A stretch of 40,000 nt of DNA from Pseudidiomarina mangrovi (lineage in GTDB: Bacteria > Pseudomonadota > Gammaproteobacteria > Enterobacterales > Alteromonadaceae). The stretch's first letter is position 1; each line of letters begins with the position of its first letter. The notes below the pieces were generated by a model. That model had not been told where the DNA came from. It searched no databases and was given only the letters and a program-made list of their open reading frames with translations. Both the position numbers and the translations under genes were made by a program. Positions 4,271 to 25,648 of this stretch are shown here, one piece after another. The stretch spans positions 267,193-307,192 of the forward strand of contig NZ_RJLC01000014.1 of assembly GCF_003999375.1 (NCBI RefSeq). Direction: 5' to 3'.

Positions 4271-5585
<1,315 letters not shown>

Positions 5586-14613: not shown

Positions 14614-14625
14614 TTCCACCGTTTT
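14601..14625. terminator. hairpin spanning the glmS stop codon, between convergent glmS and intI (possible bidirectional terminator)
   Basis: Perfect 9-bp stem AACGGTGGA (14601-14609) / TCCACCGTT (14615-14623), 5-nt loop containing the glmS TAA, short T-run after. The intI stop starts at 14624. Confidence 0.5.
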
Positions 14626-15598
14626 ACTGGTTGCTGATTAGCCGATCAAGCGGGCTAGCTGTGCCCGCATAATGTTGACCAATGACGTGTGTATAAATTT
14701 GAGTTGTACTCACGTCGTTGTGCCCTAGCAGTTCTTGTACTGTTCTAATGTCGCATCCCGCTTGTAATAGATGGGTGGCAAAGGAATGTCGAAACGTATG
14801 ACAATTCACCTTTTTAAATATTTTCGCCGCCTTCACAGCAGGTTGTAGCGCCTTGCGCACCACGCTGTCATGCAAATGATGACGGCAAAGAACCCCAGAA
14901 TATGGGTGCTTACATAGGCTTGTTGCCGGAAAGACAAACATCCATCCAGGTTGTTTATAAGCATTTGGATATTTCCTATCGAGCGCATTAGGCATCGATG
15001 GCCCAAGTCCATTCTTGTTATCCTCTATCTGAACAGTCAAAGCTGTTTCGATGGCTTGTTGTAATGGTTCAATAAGCCTTTGGCTAAGAAGGGTTTGCCG
15101 ATCTTTCTTGCCCTTACCGTCACGAACGGTAAGGGCAGCATGACTAAAATTGATATCTTGCACCCGTAAACGAAGCGCCTCACTTACTCTTAAACCGCTA
15201 CCGTATAGGAGTTCAATAATCAGCTTATTTCGACCACTAAGCTGGTTTAAAATGCGCTGAACTTCCTCAGGTGAAAGCACTACAGGCAACTGACGCTGTT
15301 TAGTGGCAAGGCTAAAATTGAGTTCACCTAGTTCCTGATTCAGCGCTTTGTGATACAGATACACCAAAGCATTTAGAGCAACTTTTTGCGTATTTACAGC
15401 AACATGGCGCTCATTAGCCAACCAACTTAAAAAGGCCTTCACCTCTTCCGCGCCCATATCATTAGGGTGTTGTTTTTTATGAAAATAAATAAACTGCCGT
15501 ATCCAACCTAAATAAGATTTCTCAGTTTTTAAGCTATAGCCACGCAATCGCATATCAGCGCGAAGTTTTTCAATAAAAGGGCTCGGCATCATTAACAT
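14624..15598 (-). CDS. intI: integron integrase IntI (appears intact)
   Basis: PSPFIEKLRADMRLRGYSLKTEKSYLGWIRQFIYFH N-terminus. Catalytic set present: R in GSGLRVSEALRLRV, GKGKKDR, HTFRHSFATHLL, GH, IYTHV. Contains the integron-specific extra segment ALDRKYPNAYKQPGWMFVFP. Start ambiguous: ATG 15598/15592/15589, or GTG 15649 in the ORF track. Confidence 0.93.
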   Translation of the reverse strand: MLMMPSPFIEKLRADMRLRGYSLKTEKSYLGWIRQFIYFHKKQHPNDMGAEEVKAFLSWLANERHVAVNTQKVALNALVYLYHKALNQELGELNFSLATKQRQLPVVLSPEEVQRILNQLSGRNKLIIELLYGSGLRVSEALRLRVQDINFSHAALTVRDGKGKKDRQTLLSQRLIEPLQQAIETALTVQIEDNKNGLGPSMPNALDRKYPNAYKQPGWMFVFPATSLCKHPYSGVLCRHHLHDSVVRKALQPAVKAAKIFKKVNCHTFRHSFATHLLQAGCDIRTVQELLGHNDVSTTQIYTHVIGQHYAGTASPLDRLISNQ

Positions 15599-15660
15599 CC
15601 ATGATTTTTGATAATCGTGAGTTAATAAGCATAATCGATCAATCGGCACGCTTCACGGCT

Positions 15661-15750
15661 CAAAGTCGCACACTTAAAGCTTGCATGTAGGATAAATATG
15701 TCCTATTTTCAATTACATAATTTAAACAAAAATAGTGTTATCAGGCGTAG
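15661..15750 (+). other. attI region (primary recombination site region next to intI)
   Basis: Lies between the intI start and the first cassette gene. Contains GTTATCA at 15737-15743 as a candidate crossover core. A homologous copy is at 25557-25648. Confidence 0.6.
15681..15709 (+). promoter_or_regulatory. candidate cassette-directed promoter (Pc-like) inside attI
   Basis: TTGCAT (15681-15686), 17 bp, TATTTT (15704-15709), pointing into the array. The same architecture is conserved in the second attI copy (TTGCAT 25577-25582, 17 bp, TACTTT 25600-25605). Confidence 0.3.
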
Positions 15751-15906
15751 TCGAACAACAAAGTGTGCGTGCTTACTTTGCTGACAAGAAAAGGCGACAT
15801 TTTAGATGGTTTTTGTATTGTTTTTGGTGAGTTACTAGGTACACCGAACGATTACGACATGTGCCAGAACACTATACAAATGTTATGTGCTCGCAAGGAA
15901 CCAAGT

Positions 15907-16314
15907 ATGGCTTTAAATTTGAAAGAGGTTGATGGCGTTCCAATCCAAGCTAAACACAAAGCTACCTGCCATTGTGGTTCTGTTGAGTTTGAGCTTGATT
16001 TGCCGGATGGTTTGGTTGAATTACGTCGCTGTGATTGTTCGCTTTGCCGGCGGCGTGGAGCAATAGCGGCTTCAATTCCTCTGTCGGGTATAAAAATTAT
16101 AAAAGGTGAGAGCTTTTTAAAGCTTTATCAGTTTAATACAAAGACAGCCAAGCATTATTTTTGCAGTAACTGCGGTATTTATACCCACCATCAACGCAGG
16201 TCAAATCCAACGCAGTACGGTTTTAATGTTGCTTGCCTTGAGGGAATTAACCCATTGAAAATACCAAATGTACCAACCAACGATGGTGTAAACCACCCGG
16301 CCGATCGCAAATAA
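15907..16314 (+). CDS. GFA (glutathione-dependent formaldehyde-activating / CENP-V) family protein, cassette 1
   Basis: Cys-rich zinc motifs CHCGSVEF, RCDCSLCRRRG, FCSNCGIYTHHQ. AAGGAA Shine-Dalgarno before ATG 15907; the track start at 15763 is unsupported. Confidence 0.8.
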   Translation: MALNLKEVDGVPIQAKHKATCHCGSVEFELDLPDGLVELRRCDCSLCRRRGAIAASIPLSGIKIIKGESFLKLYQFNTKTAKHYFCSNCGIYTHHQRRSNPTQYGFNVACLEGINPLKIPNVPTNDGVNHPADRK

Positions 16315-16318
16315 TGGC

Positions 16319-16409
16319 ACATAACAAGCAAATTTTATCGCCAGCAAAAAGCGCTGGCTGCGACGTCAACCCGCTGCGCGGCTTTCCGCGCTAAATTTGG
16401 GCGTTATGT
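16319..16409 (+). repeat. attC site 1 (91 bp)
   Basis: ACATAAC (16319-16325) ... GTTATGT (16403-16409) are exact reverse complements. Internal dyads AACAAGCAAATTT / AAATTTGGGCGTT. Begins 5 bp after the stop codon. Confidence 0.85.
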
Positions 16410-17410: not shown

Positions 17411-17812
17411 GTGAATATGTCTAAACTCTGCGCAAATACGTTCAAGCTTTCTGACGTCACATCTGGCGGTATGTTTGGAGTCGCAAGTTTAGGTGCACTA
17501 CTGTCATTTGTCGTACCTAAAATTGCGTTAGTAGTGGCTGCAATAGTTCATAGTTTATCTTTGGGTAGTGGAGGCTATTTGTATTTCATAGCTTTTATCG
17601 GGCTAAACTATCTTACGTTCAGACATAGACCAGTTGCATTATTAGGTCACATTCTCCTAATTTTACTTTTAGCTGTATTTGGTAGTGGTTTTTCATATTT
17701 ATATACCACTTTGTTTTTCATATATTTATTGCCTTACATCTTGGTGTACATAGAGGCAACGAAACATAACAAGTCAAGCAACCCGGAGGCGGCACGCCGC
17801 ACCGGTTCTTGA
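17411..17812 (+). CDS. hypothetical polytopic membrane protein, cassette 4
   Basis: About 4 predicted TM helices. Start is GTG 17411 or ATG 17417. The ORF reads through most of attC 4 before its stop. Confidence 0.6.
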   Translation: MNMSKLCANTFKLSDVTSGGMFGVASLGALLSFVVPKIALVVAAIVHSLSLGSGGYLYFIAFIGLNYLTFRHRPVALLGHILLILLLAVFGSGFSYLYTTLFFIYLLPYILVYIEATKHNKSSNPEAARRTGS

Positions 17813-17822
17813 AGCGTTATGT
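17764..17822 (+). repeat. attC site 4 (59 bp)
   Basis: ACATAAC ... GTTATGT; TCAAG..AACC / GGTT..CTTGA pairing. Confidence 0.85.
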
Positions 17823-17843
17823 GTATCAGGTTAGGTGAATAAA

Positions 17844-18116
17844 ATGAGCGCTGGAATACCTCTATTTGCGGTAAGTTGTTTAGCGGTTCTTATATTAGTG
17901 GCATGGTTGTGGGGCGGTTCCGGTACTTTACGAAGCAGAACGATGATTGCTAGCTTTACCTTGCTGCTTCTGTCTGTATCTTGGTTTGCGTTGCTGTTAT
18001 TCGGCGTATTTCACCCGGTTGGGTCTTGGGCTATGGGCGTAGGTTTTGTTGTATCAGTAGCGGCGCTCTTCATACCTACCATACATAATAGGTACCAGAA
18101 AAATGGAAACACATAA
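17844..18116 (+). CDS. hypothetical small membrane protein, cassette 5
   Basis: About 3 TM helices; AGGTGA Shine-Dalgarno 5 nt before ATG 17844; stop TAA inside the attC inverse core. Confidence 0.6.
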   Translation: MSAGIPLFAVSCLAVLILVAWLWGGSGTLRSRTMIASFTLLLLSVSWFALLLFGVFHPVGSWAMGVGFVVSVAALFIPTIHNRYQKNGNT

Positions 18117-18188
18117 CCAAGCCATTAAGTACGCGCACTTCGTGCGCCGGACCTCGTTTCACTCGGCCGCTTATGGCGGGCGTTAAAT
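18111..18188 (+). repeat. attC site 5 (78 bp)
   Basis: ACATAAC ... GTTAAAT. Same family as attC 13 and 14 (CCATTAA...GGCGGGCGTTA). Confidence 0.85.
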
Positions 18189-18202
18189 ACCAATCATAGC
18201 CT

Positions 18203-18592
18203 ATGAGAATCGGTGAGCTTGCAAAAAGTGCGGGAGTTTCGGTTGAGACGGTTCGTTACTATCAACGGCGGGGACTTCTGGATATTCCAGAGTGCCCATA
18301 CGGAGAGAACCGGCACTACTCGACTTCGCACCGTGATCGTCTGTCTTTTATCAGGCGCGCTCAAGCGCTTGGGTTCACGCTATCGGAAATTGGCACCCTG
18401 CTTGAACTTTCAGCATCCGATTGCTCGGGGGTCGAAAGCGTAGCTAAGCGTAAATTGTTGCTGGTGCGCAAAAAATTAATTGATCTTGCCAAGATTGAAG
18501 CTGTTTTGGAGCAAGCCGTTGCTAGCTGTAAAGATCGTAAGCCTTATGCGGGCTGCCCCATCATAGAGAGCTTGATCGACGAAGAACCTTGA
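18203..18592 (+). CDS. merR: MerR-family Hg(II)-type metalloregulator, cassette 6 gene 1
   Basis: N-terminal HTH MRIGELAKSAGVSVETVRYYQRRGLL. Cys74/Cys109/Cys118 have the 35- and 9-residue spacing of the MerR metal-binding cysteines (C82/C117/C126 in Tn21/Tn501), ending C-X8-C-P-I-I. Confidence 0.85.
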   Translation: MRIGELAKSAGVSVETVRYYQRRGLLDIPECPYGENRHYSTSHRDRLSFIRRAQALGFTLSEIGTLLELSASDCSGVESVAKRKLLLVRKKLIDLAKIEAVLEQAVASCKDRKPYAGCPIIESLIDEEP

Positions 18593-18620
18593 CACCGTAC
18601 CTAGGTACGGGATTTATACT
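18589..18620 (+). promoter_or_regulatory. mer-type operator/promoter with over-long spacer
   Basis: TTGACA (18589-18594), a 20-bp spacer (19 bp if -10 is TTATAC), TATACT (18615-18620). The spacer holds the perfect palindrome CCGTAC-CTAG-GTACGG (18595-18610), which resembles the Tn21/Tn501 mer operator dyad TCCGTAC-N4-GTACGGA. Confidence 0.75.
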
Positions 18621-18651
18621 GACAGTGTCTCAATAATCAAGGTCTCTTACA

Positions 18652-19035
18652 ATGAAAGAATCTCTCCTGAGCTTTGGTGGTATCGGAAGCGGTGTGGCAG
18701 CGGTAGCGGCTGCGACTCCATGCTGTTTTCCGGTGCTTGCTTCCGTTGCCAGCATCGTCGGTTTATCAGCTTTACTGCCTTACTCCGAGTACATTGCTTA
18801 CATCGTGCAAATATTCGGTTTGCTGGCAGTTGTTGGTGCTTATCTGTCATTTCGCAAACATGGCAAGCATGGGCCATTAGCCTTAACCGTATTGTGCTTT
18901 AGCGCATTGTTGGTTGTTTATAACATTTTTCTACTAGGATGGCTGCTTTACTCTGCGCTGGTTGGGCTGGTAGTAGCTGCCATTTGGAACACTTTGGAAG
19001 CCAAGAGGTGTAATCAATGCATAACACAAGCATAG
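18652..19035 (+). CDS. MerC-family membrane transporter-like protein, cassette 6 gene 2
   Basis: 4 TM helices. ATPCCFPVLASVASIVGLSAL parallels MerC GCAACFPALASFGAAIGLGFL (paired Cys in TM1). C-terminal CNQC. Confidence 0.7.
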   Translation: MKESLLSFGGIGSGVAAVAAATPCCFPVLASVASIVGLSALLPYSEYIAYIVQIFGLLAVVGAYLSFRKHGKHGPLALTVLCFSALLVVYNIFLLGWLLYSALVGLVVAAIWNTLEAKRCNQCITQA

Positions 19036-19232
19036 TGCTTCAATCGGAAATCACTTGCCCGCACTGTGGTTATCAAAAAACTGAAACCATGCCAACTGAC
19101 GCATGCCAATATTTCTATGACTGCGAGTTCTGCAAAAGGGTCCTAGAACCAAACGCCGGAGATTGCTGTGTTTTTTGTAGCTTTGGTTCGATTAAATGTC
19201 CTCCAATACAGGAAGGCAAGTGTTGCGAGTAA
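19017..19232 (+). CDS. GDCCVxC-motif small cysteine-rich protein, cassette 6 gene 3
   Basis: 71 aa with CPHC, CxxxxxCxxC and the GDCCVFC motif; ends KCCE. Overlaps the merC-like 3' end (alternative GTG start at 19035). Confidence 0.7.
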   Translation: MHNTSIVLQSEITCPHCGYQKTETMPTDACQYFYDCEFCKRVLEPNAGDCCVFCSFGSIKCPPIQEGKCCE

Positions 19233-19236
19233 TGGC

Positions 19237-19327
19237 ATTTAACAATCAAATTTTATCGCCAGCAAAAAGCGCTGGCTGCGACGTCAACCCGCTGCGCGGC
19301 TTTCCGCGCTAAATTTGGGCGTTAGCA
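19237..19327 (+). repeat. attC site 6 (91 bp)
   Basis: ATTTAAC ... GTTAGCA. The central ~77 bp looks identical to attC 1 (CAAATTTTATCGCCAGCAAAAAGCGCTGGCTGCGACGTCAACCCGCTGCGCGGCTTTCCGCGCTAAATTTGGGCGTTA). Confidence 0.85.
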
Positions 19328-19382
19328 GGCACTTCTTTCTAGCTATCTTGCCAAATGAGTAAAAAAGGAATAATTTATACTC

Positions 19383-19646
19383 ATGCACATTTTCGAGTTT
19401 GATAACGATAAGAGCCAAGCGAATCTAGAGAAGCATGGAATCAGTTTTCATGACGCGCAGGCCTTATGGGATGACCAGGATCTTCTTGAGGTTCAAGCAA
19501 AGACGGTCGATGAACCACGCTACCTCGTTATTGGTCTTATTGGTAGCAAACACTGGTCTGCTGTTATCACTTACCGAGGGGAGAAAATTCGTCTCATCTC
19601 GGTAAGGCGCTCGCGTAAGAGAGAGGTAGAGTTGTATGAAAGCTAA
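19383..19646 (+). CDS. brnT: BrnT-family (DUF497) type II toxin, cassette 7
   Basis: 87 aa; FEFDNDKSQANLEKHGISFHDAQ ... RLISVRRSRKREVELY is typical of BrnT. Overlaps the downstream brnA by 11 nt. Confidence 0.8.
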   Translation: MHIFEFDNDKSQANLEKHGISFHDAQALWDDQDLLEVQAKTVDEPRYLVIGLIGSKHWSAVITYRGEKIRLISVRRSRKREVELYES

Positions 19647-19905
19647 AGATTTTGACACGAAGTTTGATGAAGGTGCAGATGACATCATTGATGATCTGGA
19701 TGTCAAGAGCGCACGGCGGGTAAACCAGGAAGCGAAACGTATTAACGTAGACTTTCCTGCTTGGGTAGTTGAGTCACTTGATCGCGAAGCTGCTCGAATT
19801 GGCGTGACTCGGCAGTCGATTATTAAAGTTTGGCTTGTAGAGCGTTTACGGGCTGAAGCTGCTAACAAACCGCTGAAAGATGATGCCGCAAGCGGCGCAC
19901 GTTAG
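19636..19905 (+). CDS. brnA: BrnA-family antitoxin (CopG/RHH-like C-terminus), cassette 7
   Basis: 89 aa; INVDFPAWVVESLDREAARIGVTRQSIIKVWLVERL is a BrnA-type DNA-binding region. The tail is encoded within attC 7. Confidence 0.8.
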   Translation: MKAKDFDTKFDEGADDIIDDLDVKSARRVNQEAKRINVDFPAWVVESLDREAARIGVTRQSIIKVWLVERLRAEAANKPLKDDAASGAR

Positions 19906-20847: not shown

Positions 20848-21507
20848 ATGAAATTATTGGTTTTTTTGGGCACCGTGCGTGAAAGCACTCCTCCGACACC
20901 AGCCCGACTGGGTGTTCGTGTAGCGAAAGCAGTTCTTGAATGCCTGAAAAGTCGATGTAAAGGCTATGAAATAGAGCTTATTGACGCTAAAGATTACCCA
21001 CTAGAGGCTGTATTCAAGCCGCACTTCGCGTATCCCAAAAGCAAGGCCCCTTCACAGCTCGTCGAGCTGGCTGAAAAGATTGAAAGTGCCGATGGATACA
21101 TTATGGTCAGCCCCGAATACAATCACTCAATGAGTCCGGCGCTTGCCAATCTTTTGAATCATTTTGGCAGCTCTTTATTTTCCTATAAGCCAAGTGCCAT
21201 CGTTACATACTCGGCAGGCCAATGGGGCGGGATGCGTGCAGCAATTGGAATGCGTACATTTCTTTCAGAGCTGGGCTGCCTGCCGGTCTCTTCGATGATA
21301 CATGTTCCCAAAGCGCAAGAAGTCTTTGCCGCCGATGGATCAATGCAGGCCGGGGAAGACAAGGACGCTTGGTTCGATTATTTCATACGAACATTCAACC
21401 AATTGATTTGGTGGGCCCAGGCGGCACATGGGTATCGAGTACAAGTTGACCCGCATAAGCTGGTAAAAGATTTCAAGAAGAATCCCTCTGAGCGAAACGC
21501 GCCTTAA
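20848..21507 (+). CDS. NAD(P)H-dependent FMN reductase-family flavoprotein, cassette 10
   Basis: Flavodoxin-like fold signature MKLLVFLGTVRE ... IMVSPEYNHSMSPALANLLNHF. Confidence 0.8.
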   Translation: MKLLVFLGTVRESTPPTPARLGVRVAKAVLECLKSRCKGYEIELIDAKDYPLEAVFKPHFAYPKSKAPSQLVELAEKIESADGYIMVSPEYNHSMSPALANLLNHFGSSLFSYKPSAIVTYSAGQWGGMRAAIGMRTFLSELGCLPVSSMIHVPKAQEVFAADGSMQAGEDKDAWFDYFIRTFNQLIWWAQAAHGYRVQVDPHKLVKDFKKNPSERNAP

Positions 21508-24877: not shown

Positions 24878-24967
24878 ACATAACAATCCGCAGCAATCGA
24901 TCCCTTTGGTCGCTCGGACAGCCAAAACGCTGCGCTTATTTGGCGGCCTTTGCGCGGGGCGTTAGCA
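24878..24967 (+). repeat. attC site 16 (90 bp)
   Basis: ACATAAC ... GTTAGCA. Confidence 0.8.
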
Positions 24968-25022
24968 GCCACTTCTTTCTAGCTATCTTGCCAAATGAGG
25001 AAAAAGGGAATAATTTATACTC

Positions 25023-25247
25023 ATGCACATTGTCGAGTTTGATAACGATAAGAGCCAAGCGAATCTAGAGAAGCATGGAATCAGTTTTCGTGACGCGCAG
25101 GCCTTATGGGATGAACCACGCTACCTCGTTATTGGTCTTATTGGTAGCAAACACTGGTCTACTGTTATCACTTACCGAGGGAAGAAAATTCGTCTCATCT
25201 CGGTACGACGCTCGCGTAAGAGAGAGGTAGAGTTGTATGAAAGCTAA
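25023..25247 (+). CDS. brnT: BrnT-family toxin paralogue with a 13-codon in-frame internal deletion, cassette 17
   Basis: 74 aa; about 97% nt identity to 19383-19646 except for loss of the 39 bp encoding DQDLLEVQAKTVD (junction 25114/25115). Confidence 0.75.
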   Translation: MHIVEFDNDKSQANLEKHGISFRDAQALWDEPRYLVIGLIGSKHWSTVITYRGKKIRLISVRRSRKREVELYES

Positions 25248-25506
25248 AGACTTTGACACGAAGTTTGATGAAGGCGCAGATGACATCATTGATGATCTGG
25301 ATGTTAAGAGCGCACGGCGGGTAAACCAGGAAGCGAAACGTATTAACGTAGACTTTCCTGCTTGGGTAGTTGAGTCACTTGATCGCGAAGCTGCTCGAAT
25401 TGGTGTTACTCGACAATCCATCATTAAAGTTTGGCTGGTGGAGCGTTTGCGAGCTGAAGCTGCCAACAAGCAGCTCAAAAGTGACACCGCAAGCGGCGCG
25501 CATTAG
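25237..25506 (+). CDS. brnA: BrnA-family antitoxin paralogue, cassette 17
   Basis: 89 aa; the first 78 residues are identical to the 19636-19905 product. Confidence 0.8.
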   Translation: MKAKDFDTKFDEGADDIIDDLDVKSARRVNQEAKRINVDFPAWVVESLDREAARIGVTRQSIIKVWLVERLRAEAANKQLKSDTASGAH

Positions 25507-25519: not shown

Positions 25520-25556
25520 TTTAATAAACGACCACTCATCGTCACTCTTCGCCACT

Positions 25557-25648
25557 CAAAGCTGCACACCTAGTGCTTGCATGTCCGATAACTATGCCCT
25601 ACTTTCAAGTACATATTTTAAACAAGCGAAGTGTTATCAGGCGCAGTC
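25557..25648 (+). other. second, integrase-less attI-like region
   Basis: Hand alignment to 15661-15753 gives 75/93 ungapped matches. It includes the TTGCAT-17-TAYTTT element and GTGTTATCAGGCG (GTTATCA at 25633-25639). Confidence 0.7.

Follow-up and report, generated by a model that had tools for sequence, protein, structure and literature searches.

Mercury resistance operons of the Tn21/Tn501 type comprise merR, merT, merP, (merC), merA, merD and merE. Within such systems the NmerA domain takes Hg(II) from the cytoplasmic cysteines of the importer and passes it on, and on the classical view Hg(II) import in the absence of MerA should harm the cell. How cells that lack MerA cope with cytoplasmic Hg(II) is a question that is being asked in the mercury field (PMC8261052). 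The mer locus of Tn5563 is listed in the literature as merRTP only and is described there as 'defective' or as 'only part of this operon' (PMC4785139, PMC4133298). In an experiment with 15 hosts, introduction of the complete Tn5563a raised the minimum inhibitory concentration (MIC) of Hg(II) in two Pseudomonas strains and lowered it at least 2-fold in six hosts (PMC4447125), which the authors explained by import without MerA and by a possible chromosomal merA (PMC4447125). Here a 40,000-nucleotide stretch of Pseudidiomarina mangrovi DNA (termed the window) is analysed, in which an integron cassette carries three genes: a Hg(II)-type merR, a gene for a MerC-like importer and a gene for a small, cysteine-rich protein of the GDCCVxC family. 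This cassette is probably a mobile, mer-like module that is complete in itself yet has no reductase, in which Hg(II)-gated import would be joined to a cytoplasmic, cysteine-rich acceptor that hands the metal on. The features that make up the cassette are as follows.

18183-19321, + strand: the whole three-gene integron cassette, 1139 bp, with G/TTRRRY sites at both ends (the slash marks the recombination point).
18203-18592, + strand: merR, encoding a Hg(II)-type MerR of 129 aa (TIGR02051, 140.2 bits), co-directional with the two effector genes.
18589-18620, + strand: MerR-type promoter-operator, with a -35 box TTGACA at 18589-18594, a 20-nt spacer and a -10 box TATACT at 18615-18620.
18652-19035, + strand: predicted MerC-family inner-membrane importer of 127 aa with about four transmembrane (TM) segments (Pfam PF03203).
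19017-19232, + strand: soluble GDCCVxC-domain protein of 71 aa with 11 Cys (NF041374, 103.1 bits against a cut-off of 40).
19233-19327, + strand: the cassette's own attC, with its G/TT point at 19321/19322, 95% identical to the attC at 16307-16406.

With the Tn21/Tn501-type operon this cassette shares (i) a Hg-type MerR with three ligand cysteines, (ii) CCGTAC/GTACGG half-sites located between the -35 and -10 boxes within an over-long spacer, and (iii) a MerC-family inner-membrane importer with a Cys pair. It differs in lacking merA, merT, merP, merD and merE and in having the GDCCVxC gene where merA would be; in its co-directional merR, which places the operator at the 3' end of that gene rather than within a divergent promoter region; in the length of the spacer (20 nt versus 19) and the form of the Cys pair within TM1 of the importer (CC versus CxxC); and in being packaged as an integron cassette.

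There is also a likeness to the mer locus of Tn5563 and Tn5563a, which likewise combines a Hg-MerR, an importer and a GDCCVxC protein, has no merA, and has the 20-nt spacer with a CCGTAC-N4-GTACGG dyad. The best plasmid matches of the window MerR (about 51% identical) are the regulators of loci consisting of merR, merT, merP, a GDCCVxC gene and tnpA, which reside on Tn3-family transposons in plasmids of Pseudomonas, Klebsiella, Salmonella and Aeromonas. Some of the Klebsiella, Pseudomonas and Aeromonas plasmids encode carbapenemases; where Tn5563-like plasmid copies were examined, the GDCCVxC open reading frame (ORF) lies between merP and tnpA. The differences are that the importer of the Tn5563 locus is MerT plus MerP, that its merR is divergent and that its carrier is a Tn3-family transposon. 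All three protein families of the cassette are already catalogued, but neither the module itself (a sensor, an importer and a GDCCVxC protein without a reductase) nor its occurrence as a three-gene integron cassette that regulates itself, with the operator at the 3' end of a co-directional merR, has been described.

The regulator is 47% identical to the MerR of Tn21/R100 (BLASTP) and has cysteines at positions 31, 74, 109 and 118. An earlier sequence-only reading of this DNA had noted that Cys74, Cys109 and Cys118 reproduce the spacings, 35 and 9 residues, of the Hg(II)-binding cysteines; these do align with the Hg ligands C82, C117 and C126 of Tn21 MerR. The score of the protein on TIGR02051, the Hg-MerR equivalog model, lies some 60 bits above its scores on the CadR, ZntR and CueR models (about 77-81 bits), and judged by these profiles it is closest to Hg-MerR among the metal-sensor models. 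The same reading had noted that merR is co-directional with the effector genes and ends within the -35 box, as is indeed so: its stop codon, TGA, occupies 18590-18592, and in relatives of the cassette the merR stop again falls inside the TTGA of the -35 box. Because no ordinary sigma-70 promoter (16-18-nt spacer) was found in 17800-19500, and because merR starts 20 nt from the recombination point, transcription of merR appears to enter from outside the cassette, so that its expression would depend, as had been proposed, on such incoming transcription.

The mer-type operator reported in the sequence-only reading likewise stands. The perfect dyad, CCGTAC-CTAG-GTACGG (CCGTACCTAGGTACGG, a 16-nt palindrome), occupies 18595-18610 at the beginning of the spacer, and its arms are the same as those of Tn21: the R100 (Tn21) operator, TTGACT-CCGTACATGAGTACGGAAG-TAAGGT, has half-sites as in the window and a 19-nt spacer. 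The Tn5563-type operator, TTGATT-CCGTACTTTGGTACGGAGTT-TAGAAT, has the geometry of the window, which recurs as a 20-nt spacing in the GDCCVxC operons L016, L033, L051 and L080. A search for TTGACN-CCGTAC-N4-GTACGG with at most two mismatches yields one match in the window against about 0.01 expected from shuffled sequences. An alignment of 12 cassette copies drawn from other genomes and from metagenomes shows no change in the arms CCGTAC and GTACGG or in the distance between them, whereas the non-coding bases around the dyad vary, as do the coding bases just upstream; because the arms stay fixed while their flanks change, the operator is, on this pattern of conservation, real and under purifying selection. 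The palindrome also scores as a weak terminator-like hairpin, from which no claim is drawn; terminator-like sites are not clearly enriched there (5 found versus 2.3 +/- 1.6 expected).

The importer passes the gathering score of the Pfam MerC family (33.2 versus 27.6 bits), in agreement with its prior identification as MerC-like, and is named 'MerC family mercury resistance protein' by NCBI. Its cysteines are at positions 24, 25, 82, 120 and 123. The paired cysteines previously seen in TM1 are the vicinal Cys24 and Cys25, within the motif TPCCFP. When the protein is compared with Tn21 MerC, TM1 alone aligns, with TPCCFP where Tn21 has CAACFP, such that the second Cys is the only one aligned; by this motif the importer belongs to a CC-type MerC subfamily. 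At its C-terminus a KR pair precedes CNQC (KRCNQC), and both this tail and the RKHGKHG loop are predicted, from hydropathy and the positions of positively charged residues, to be cytoplasmic. A word-index homology search with the importer gave 21 close clusters (at least 61% identical), all of about 127 aa; since this index gave close clusters only, the link between the importer and the fused Bacteroidota forms described below rests on local hidden Markov model (HMM) and tblastn searches.

The first 19 nt of the GDCCVxC gene lie within the importer gene, and AAGAGG stands ahead of its start. The small protein that it encodes, which is 100% identical to a Pseudidiomarina mangrovi entry, has the 11 cysteines and the GDCCVFC motif (residues 48-54) that had been read from the sequence, and its NCBIfam family, NF041374, is named 'GDCCVxC domain-containing (seleno)protein'; no Pfam family matched. 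Across 103 copies nine cysteines (C14, 17, 30, 36, 39, 50, 51, 54 and 61) never vary, and a C-terminal CC pair, present in the window protein, is nearly invariant in the family. The family name implies selenocysteine variants; at none of the Cys columns do the 103 copies have an in-frame stop. Hydropathy indicates neither a hydrophobic or TM segment nor a signal peptide. An AlphaFold2 model (mean pLDDT 78) has an N-terminal beta-hairpin region and short helices, with a less confident C-terminal CC tail. Its weak sequence and fold matches are to zinc ribbons, rubredoxin knuckles and WhiB proteins; a search of PDB sequences with the family profile gave insignificant zinc-ribbon and rubredoxin matches only (E >= 0.03). 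Judged by the HMM searches, the protein is not a fragment of any mer gene. This family is large: it comprises 4612 clusters at 90% identity in one database, at least 3107 clusters at 50% identity in a second, and at least 596 loci among species-representative genomes.

What is proposed for the GDCCVxC protein resembles the role of the HMA domains of NmerA and MerP, namely that of a small cysteine module that takes Hg(II) from the cytoplasmic cysteines of the importer and relays it, and a fusion of an HMA domain with GDCCVxC does exist. In sequence and predicted fold, however, the two are unrelated: the GDCCVxC protein has zinc-ribbon-like hairpins, short helices and 9-11 Cys, as opposed to the single GMTCxxC of HMA domains.

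Of the species-level loci, 80 were searched with the Tn21 Mer proteins, the window proteins and iterated HMMs. (The iterated MerT and MerP HMMs became cross-contaminated, inasmuch as Bacteroidota fuse both proteins; hence these are counted jointly as 'MerT/P-type'.) In 57 of the 80 loci, and across phyla, the GDCCVxC gene either has a Mer-type importer gene directly upstream in the same orientation or is part of a fusion with one. Importers at these 57 loci are MerT/P, MerTP, MerF-like or MerC-like: typically a MerT-MerP fusion of about 200 aa in Bacteroidota, and MerT plus MerP, MerC or a small two-TM CC protein in Proteobacteria. A MerR lies within 2.5 kb of the GDCCVxC gene in 20 loci and is usually divergent. 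The absence of merA, merT and merP from the window, noted in the sequence-only reading, is corroborated by tblastn searches with Tn21 MerA, MerT, MerP, MerD and MerE, which gave nothing at E <= 1e-4 in the 40 kb; the further question that it raised, whether relatives have an adjacent merA, is answered by the survey, in which a bona fide MerA occurs within about 7 kb of GDCCVxC in none of the 80 loci. The window fits the common arrangement, with importer and then GDCCVxC on the same strand and no merA nearby. As far as gene order and homology can tell, the window cassette is not a one-off; it is a member of a large family of reductase-less mer-like modules.

Fusions are of three kinds: MerC-like::GDCCVxC (cluster P0162), MerT/F-like::GDCCVxC (P0123, P0225) and HMA::GDCCVxC (P0134). 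The P0162 protein, of 200 aa, scores 45 bits on Pfam MerC. The fusion is not a sequencing artefact, since its cluster comprises at least 12 distinct proteins of this length, individual members occur on as many as 17 contigs, and the sequences come from several sources. Two isolate genomes, those of Adhaeribacter terrigena (L026) and Flavobacterium xylosi (L082), encode fusions of this kind as well, and so do two metagenome-assembled genomes. In these Bacteroidota proteins of about 200 aa (L026, L082, P0162) the modules and their order are those of the window, and the TM1 motif is (S/T)PCCFP (the fused importer halves carry SPCCFP, compared with TPCCFP in the window); they differ in forming one polypeptide rather than two overlapping genes, in that the MerC part is 28-31% identical to the window importer, and in that no MerR was detected beside their loci. 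Among the 80 loci the importer and GDCCVxC are fused in seven; of five fused proteins that were aligned, four carry a Cys pair where the two modules join. Such fusions would tie the importer and GDCCVxC into one functional unit, with GDCCVxC at the cytoplasmic end of the importer. Taken with the gene order conserved across phyla and with the host-dependent phenotypes of Tn5563a, they lend support to the earlier suggestion of a 'sequestration or hand-off' module.

The setting of the cassette is a chromosomal integron, whose array runs rightwards from intI on the + strand with attC repeats between cassettes, and glmU and glmS adjoin intI. Two features define this setting.

14624-15649, - strand: integron integrase intI (TIGR02249, 412.4 bits against a cut-off of 265), which anchors the array.
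18105-18187, + strand: attC of the preceding (fifth) cassette, matching attC repeat families D7, D8, D10 and D13.

The 5' boundary of the mer-like cassette is G/TTAAAT, with the recombination point at 18182/18183, and its 3' boundary is G/TTAGCA, with the point at 19321/19322; the bottom strand of its own attC folds with the R and L boxes paired (dG -21.6 kcal/mol, z = -2.2). It is thus a single cassette between the fifth and sixth attC, as had been claimed, and the sixth after intI by attC count. It departs from the typical cassette form of a single promoterless ORF in having three ORFs and an internal promoter of the regulated type.

The same cassette also occurs in other arrays (L001-L006 and L095-L102) and is intact in at least ten different ones. 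On metagenome contigs that encode an identical importer protein the trio comes first in the array, next to an integrase fragment, and is followed by unrelated cassettes (L001-L005). A variant whose GDCCVxC protein, P0003, is 90% identical to that of the window is indexed in 104 blocks of the collection: in L096 it is the second cassette next to intI, and in L097 and L099-L102 its neighbours are toxin-antitoxin, GNAT, DinB and further cassettes of typical kinds. The variant is present in Natronospira proteinivora (L098, 4047-6216) as two diverged whole three-gene cassettes in tandem, each with its own operator variant (TTGATA-CCGTACGTAGGTACGG and TTGACG-CCGTACTTAGGTACGG). The upstream flanks of 12 cassette copies part exactly 5' of GTTA(A/G)A, and the downstream flanks of other copies part right after GCGTTA; that is, divergence of the flanks falls exactly at GTTRRRY on both sides, and each cassette lineage has its own attC. 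The attC of P0003-type relatives differs from that of the window cassette and, therefore, the same gene trio travels with at least two types of attC. The cassette is a bona fide mobile integron cassette. A trio in Zhongshania arctica (L103, 5180-6216) has GTTAGA upstream and no attC after the GDCCVxC stop, and its neighbourhood is not cassette-like; it may be a cassette that became fixed outside an integron.

In the mechanism that we infer, which takes Hg(II) as the inducer and assigns both a direction to the transfer of metal and a fate to the metal itself, transcription entering the cassette (from Pc or from upstream cassettes) would supply a low level of MerR, which would occupy the dyad within the 20-nt spacer of the promoter. 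Binding of Hg(II) by Cys74, Cys109 and Cys118 would activate this long-spacer promoter, which would then drive two translationally coupled genes, those for the importer and the GDCCVxC protein. The importer would take Hg(II) across the inner membrane via the vicinal Cys pair in TM1 and pass it to its cytoplasmic C-terminal CxxC; the soluble GDCCVxC protein would accept the metal at the cytoplasmic face by means of its invariant cysteines and flexible C-terminal CC pair, would buffer it and, most likely, would hand it to a sink elsewhere (host MerA, another disulfide reductase or a thiol system). The GDCCVxC protein probably would not detoxify Hg alone.

Several points weigh against this mechanism. 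The MerR score lies slightly under the TIGR02051 equivalog cut-off (140.2 versus 150.85 bits), and the importer falls far under the NCBIfam merC equivalog NF033784 (38.8 versus 140 bits) and has CC, not CxxC, in TM1. A fold search with the GDCCVxC model (Foldseek) returned no significant match (best E ~1), and a literature search for 'GDCCVxC' returned no paper with the family name; in the literature on cysteine-rich mer genes and on mer genes in integron cassettes nothing was found on the module. The small ORF is left unannotated in the paper on Tn5563a (PMC4447125); because this ORF lies between merP and tnpA in close plasmid relatives, we infer that it was part of the tested construct, and if so the GDCCVxC protein would not detoxify Hg by itself in most hosts. 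Furthermore, 23 of the 80 GDCCVxC genes have no Mer transporter alongside, and some of these adjoin genes for RND and OEP efflux components, a multicopper oxidase, an ArsP-type permease or thioredoxin-reductase-like proteins; in view of these other neighbours the role of GDCCVxC may be broader than Hg. On plasmid pTX1 of Thauera sp. K11 (L009) a trio of a cadR-like gene, a hypothetical gene and GDCCVxC adjoins a P-type ATPase; the middle gene (4546-4944) encodes a Met-rich soluble protein of 132 aa (MMAQMG..MMQKMMGQMG), which is not a membrane importer and has no Pfam match.

Other explanations assign the GDCCVxC protein a different task. It could be a self-sufficient, metallothionein-like sponge for imported Hg(II) (or Cd, Zn or Cu) that confers resistance without a reductase, as might be supposed from its 11 Cys in 71 aa, nine of them invariant, from its occupying the operon position that is normally merA's, and from the lack of a nearby bona fide MerA in all 80 loci. 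We consider this fairly unlikely: a protein that binds the metal stoichiometrically cannot match a continued influx when it is coupled to an inducible importer, with the Tn5563a module the Hg MIC fell in six of 15 hosts and rose in only two, and the strict conservation of every Cys, of MPTDAC and of GDCCVxC looks like that of a defined fold having specific sites rather than of a low-complexity metallothionein. Alternatively, the protein could act in trans as a substitute for NmerA or for the C-terminal CC tail of MerA, delivering Hg(II) to a non-canonical disulfide oxidoreductase, that is, to an alternative reductase system. Its conserved terminal CC pair, the HMA::GDCCVxC fusion and a plasmid locus of Emticicia (L007), in which a Grx-Grx-TrxR fusion gene is directly upstream of GDCCVxC, speak for such a role, as do MerA-like class-I pyridine-nucleotide disulfide oxidoreductases encoded next to GDCCVxC at three of the 80 loci, all with the active site GGTCALRGCDPKK.

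L049, 5412-6758: MerA-like oxidoreductase.
L071, 8267-9613: MerA-like oxidoreductase.
L068, 6619-7974: MerA-like oxidoreductase.

These proteins, of 448-451 aa with a CxxxxC active site and from three unrelated genomes, were rejected as MerA: they have neither NmerA nor a C-terminal CC, they score 297-299 bits on TIGR02053 as opposed to 454, which is no better than their scores on glutathione reductase models, and they fall below every NCBIfam equivalog cut-off. They are candidate partner reductases. As a general account of the module this is nonetheless unlikely, given that the linkage is seen in only three of 80 loci and that the window has no gene alike. It is very unlikely that the GDCCVxC protein is instead a small zinc-ribbon regulator or Fe-S protein (a MerD-like co-regulator or redox sensor) rather than a metal acceptor: what it weakly resembles is in every case a zinc ribbon, a rubredoxin knuckle or a WhiB-type Fe-S protein, but none of these matches is significant, and recurrent fusion to the cytoplasmic end of importers ill suits a DNA-binding regulator. 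Least credible is the view that the cassette is a truncated or defective ordinary mer operon that has lost merA. This is how the literature treats the Tn5563 mer locus, and merA is indeed absent from the window; the present data contradict it, inasmuch as the cassette has precise attC bounds, is intact in at least ten arrays and forms two diverged tandem copies in L098, its operator is under purifying selection, the order of importer and then GDCCVxC holds in 57 of 80 species loci across phyla (with fusion in seven), and GDCCVxC is no fragment of any mer gene.

Hg(II)-gated import with hand-off to a cytoplasmic acceptor, which remains the preferred reading, bears on several wider matters. The reductase-less design is conserved, mobile and common despite the harm expected of import without MerA, and on clinical plasmids the Tn5563-type module has been written off as a defective operon, with its small ORF unannotated. 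With a sensor and a promoter of its own in some 1.1 kb, the three-gene cassette offers a compact, directly testable model for the handling of Hg(II) without MerA and, at the same time, exemplifies an integron cassette with its own signal-gated promoter; the pairing of an importer with a cysteine-rich acceptor could find use in mercury bioaccumulation or biosensing. A broader and rather doubtful possibility is that GDCCVxC is the missing cytoplasmic part of a widespread MerA-independent Hg(II) route, completing hundreds of 'defective' merRTP loci as well as the cassette; GDCCVxC acceptors would then dock on importers of the MerT, MerC and MerF types and would either pass the metal to non-canonical disulfide reductases or keep it immobilised.

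Other parts of the array yield a few further observations. At 20848-21507, two to three cassettes beyond the mer-like one on its downstream side, is a cassette of the NADPH-dependent FMN reductase family (Pfam FMN_red, 101 bits); no evidence of a functional link between the two was found. The attC of the mer-like cassette (19225-19324) and that of the first cassette of the array (16307-16406) are 95% identical. Directly downstream of the mer-like cassette is a BrnT/BrnA toxin-antitoxin cassette (BrnT assigned by Pfam and BrnA by NCBIfam), of which there are two copies, at 19317-19808 and 24957-25409, that are 97% identical. Deep in the array, at 25538-25648, some 110 nt that begin immediately after an attC-like GTTAG are 80% identical to the attI/intI-proximal sequence at 15642-15752, and the match takes in the AGTGTTATCAGGCG crossover area. 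This stretch may represent a second attI-like site or else the relic of a fusion of two integrons.

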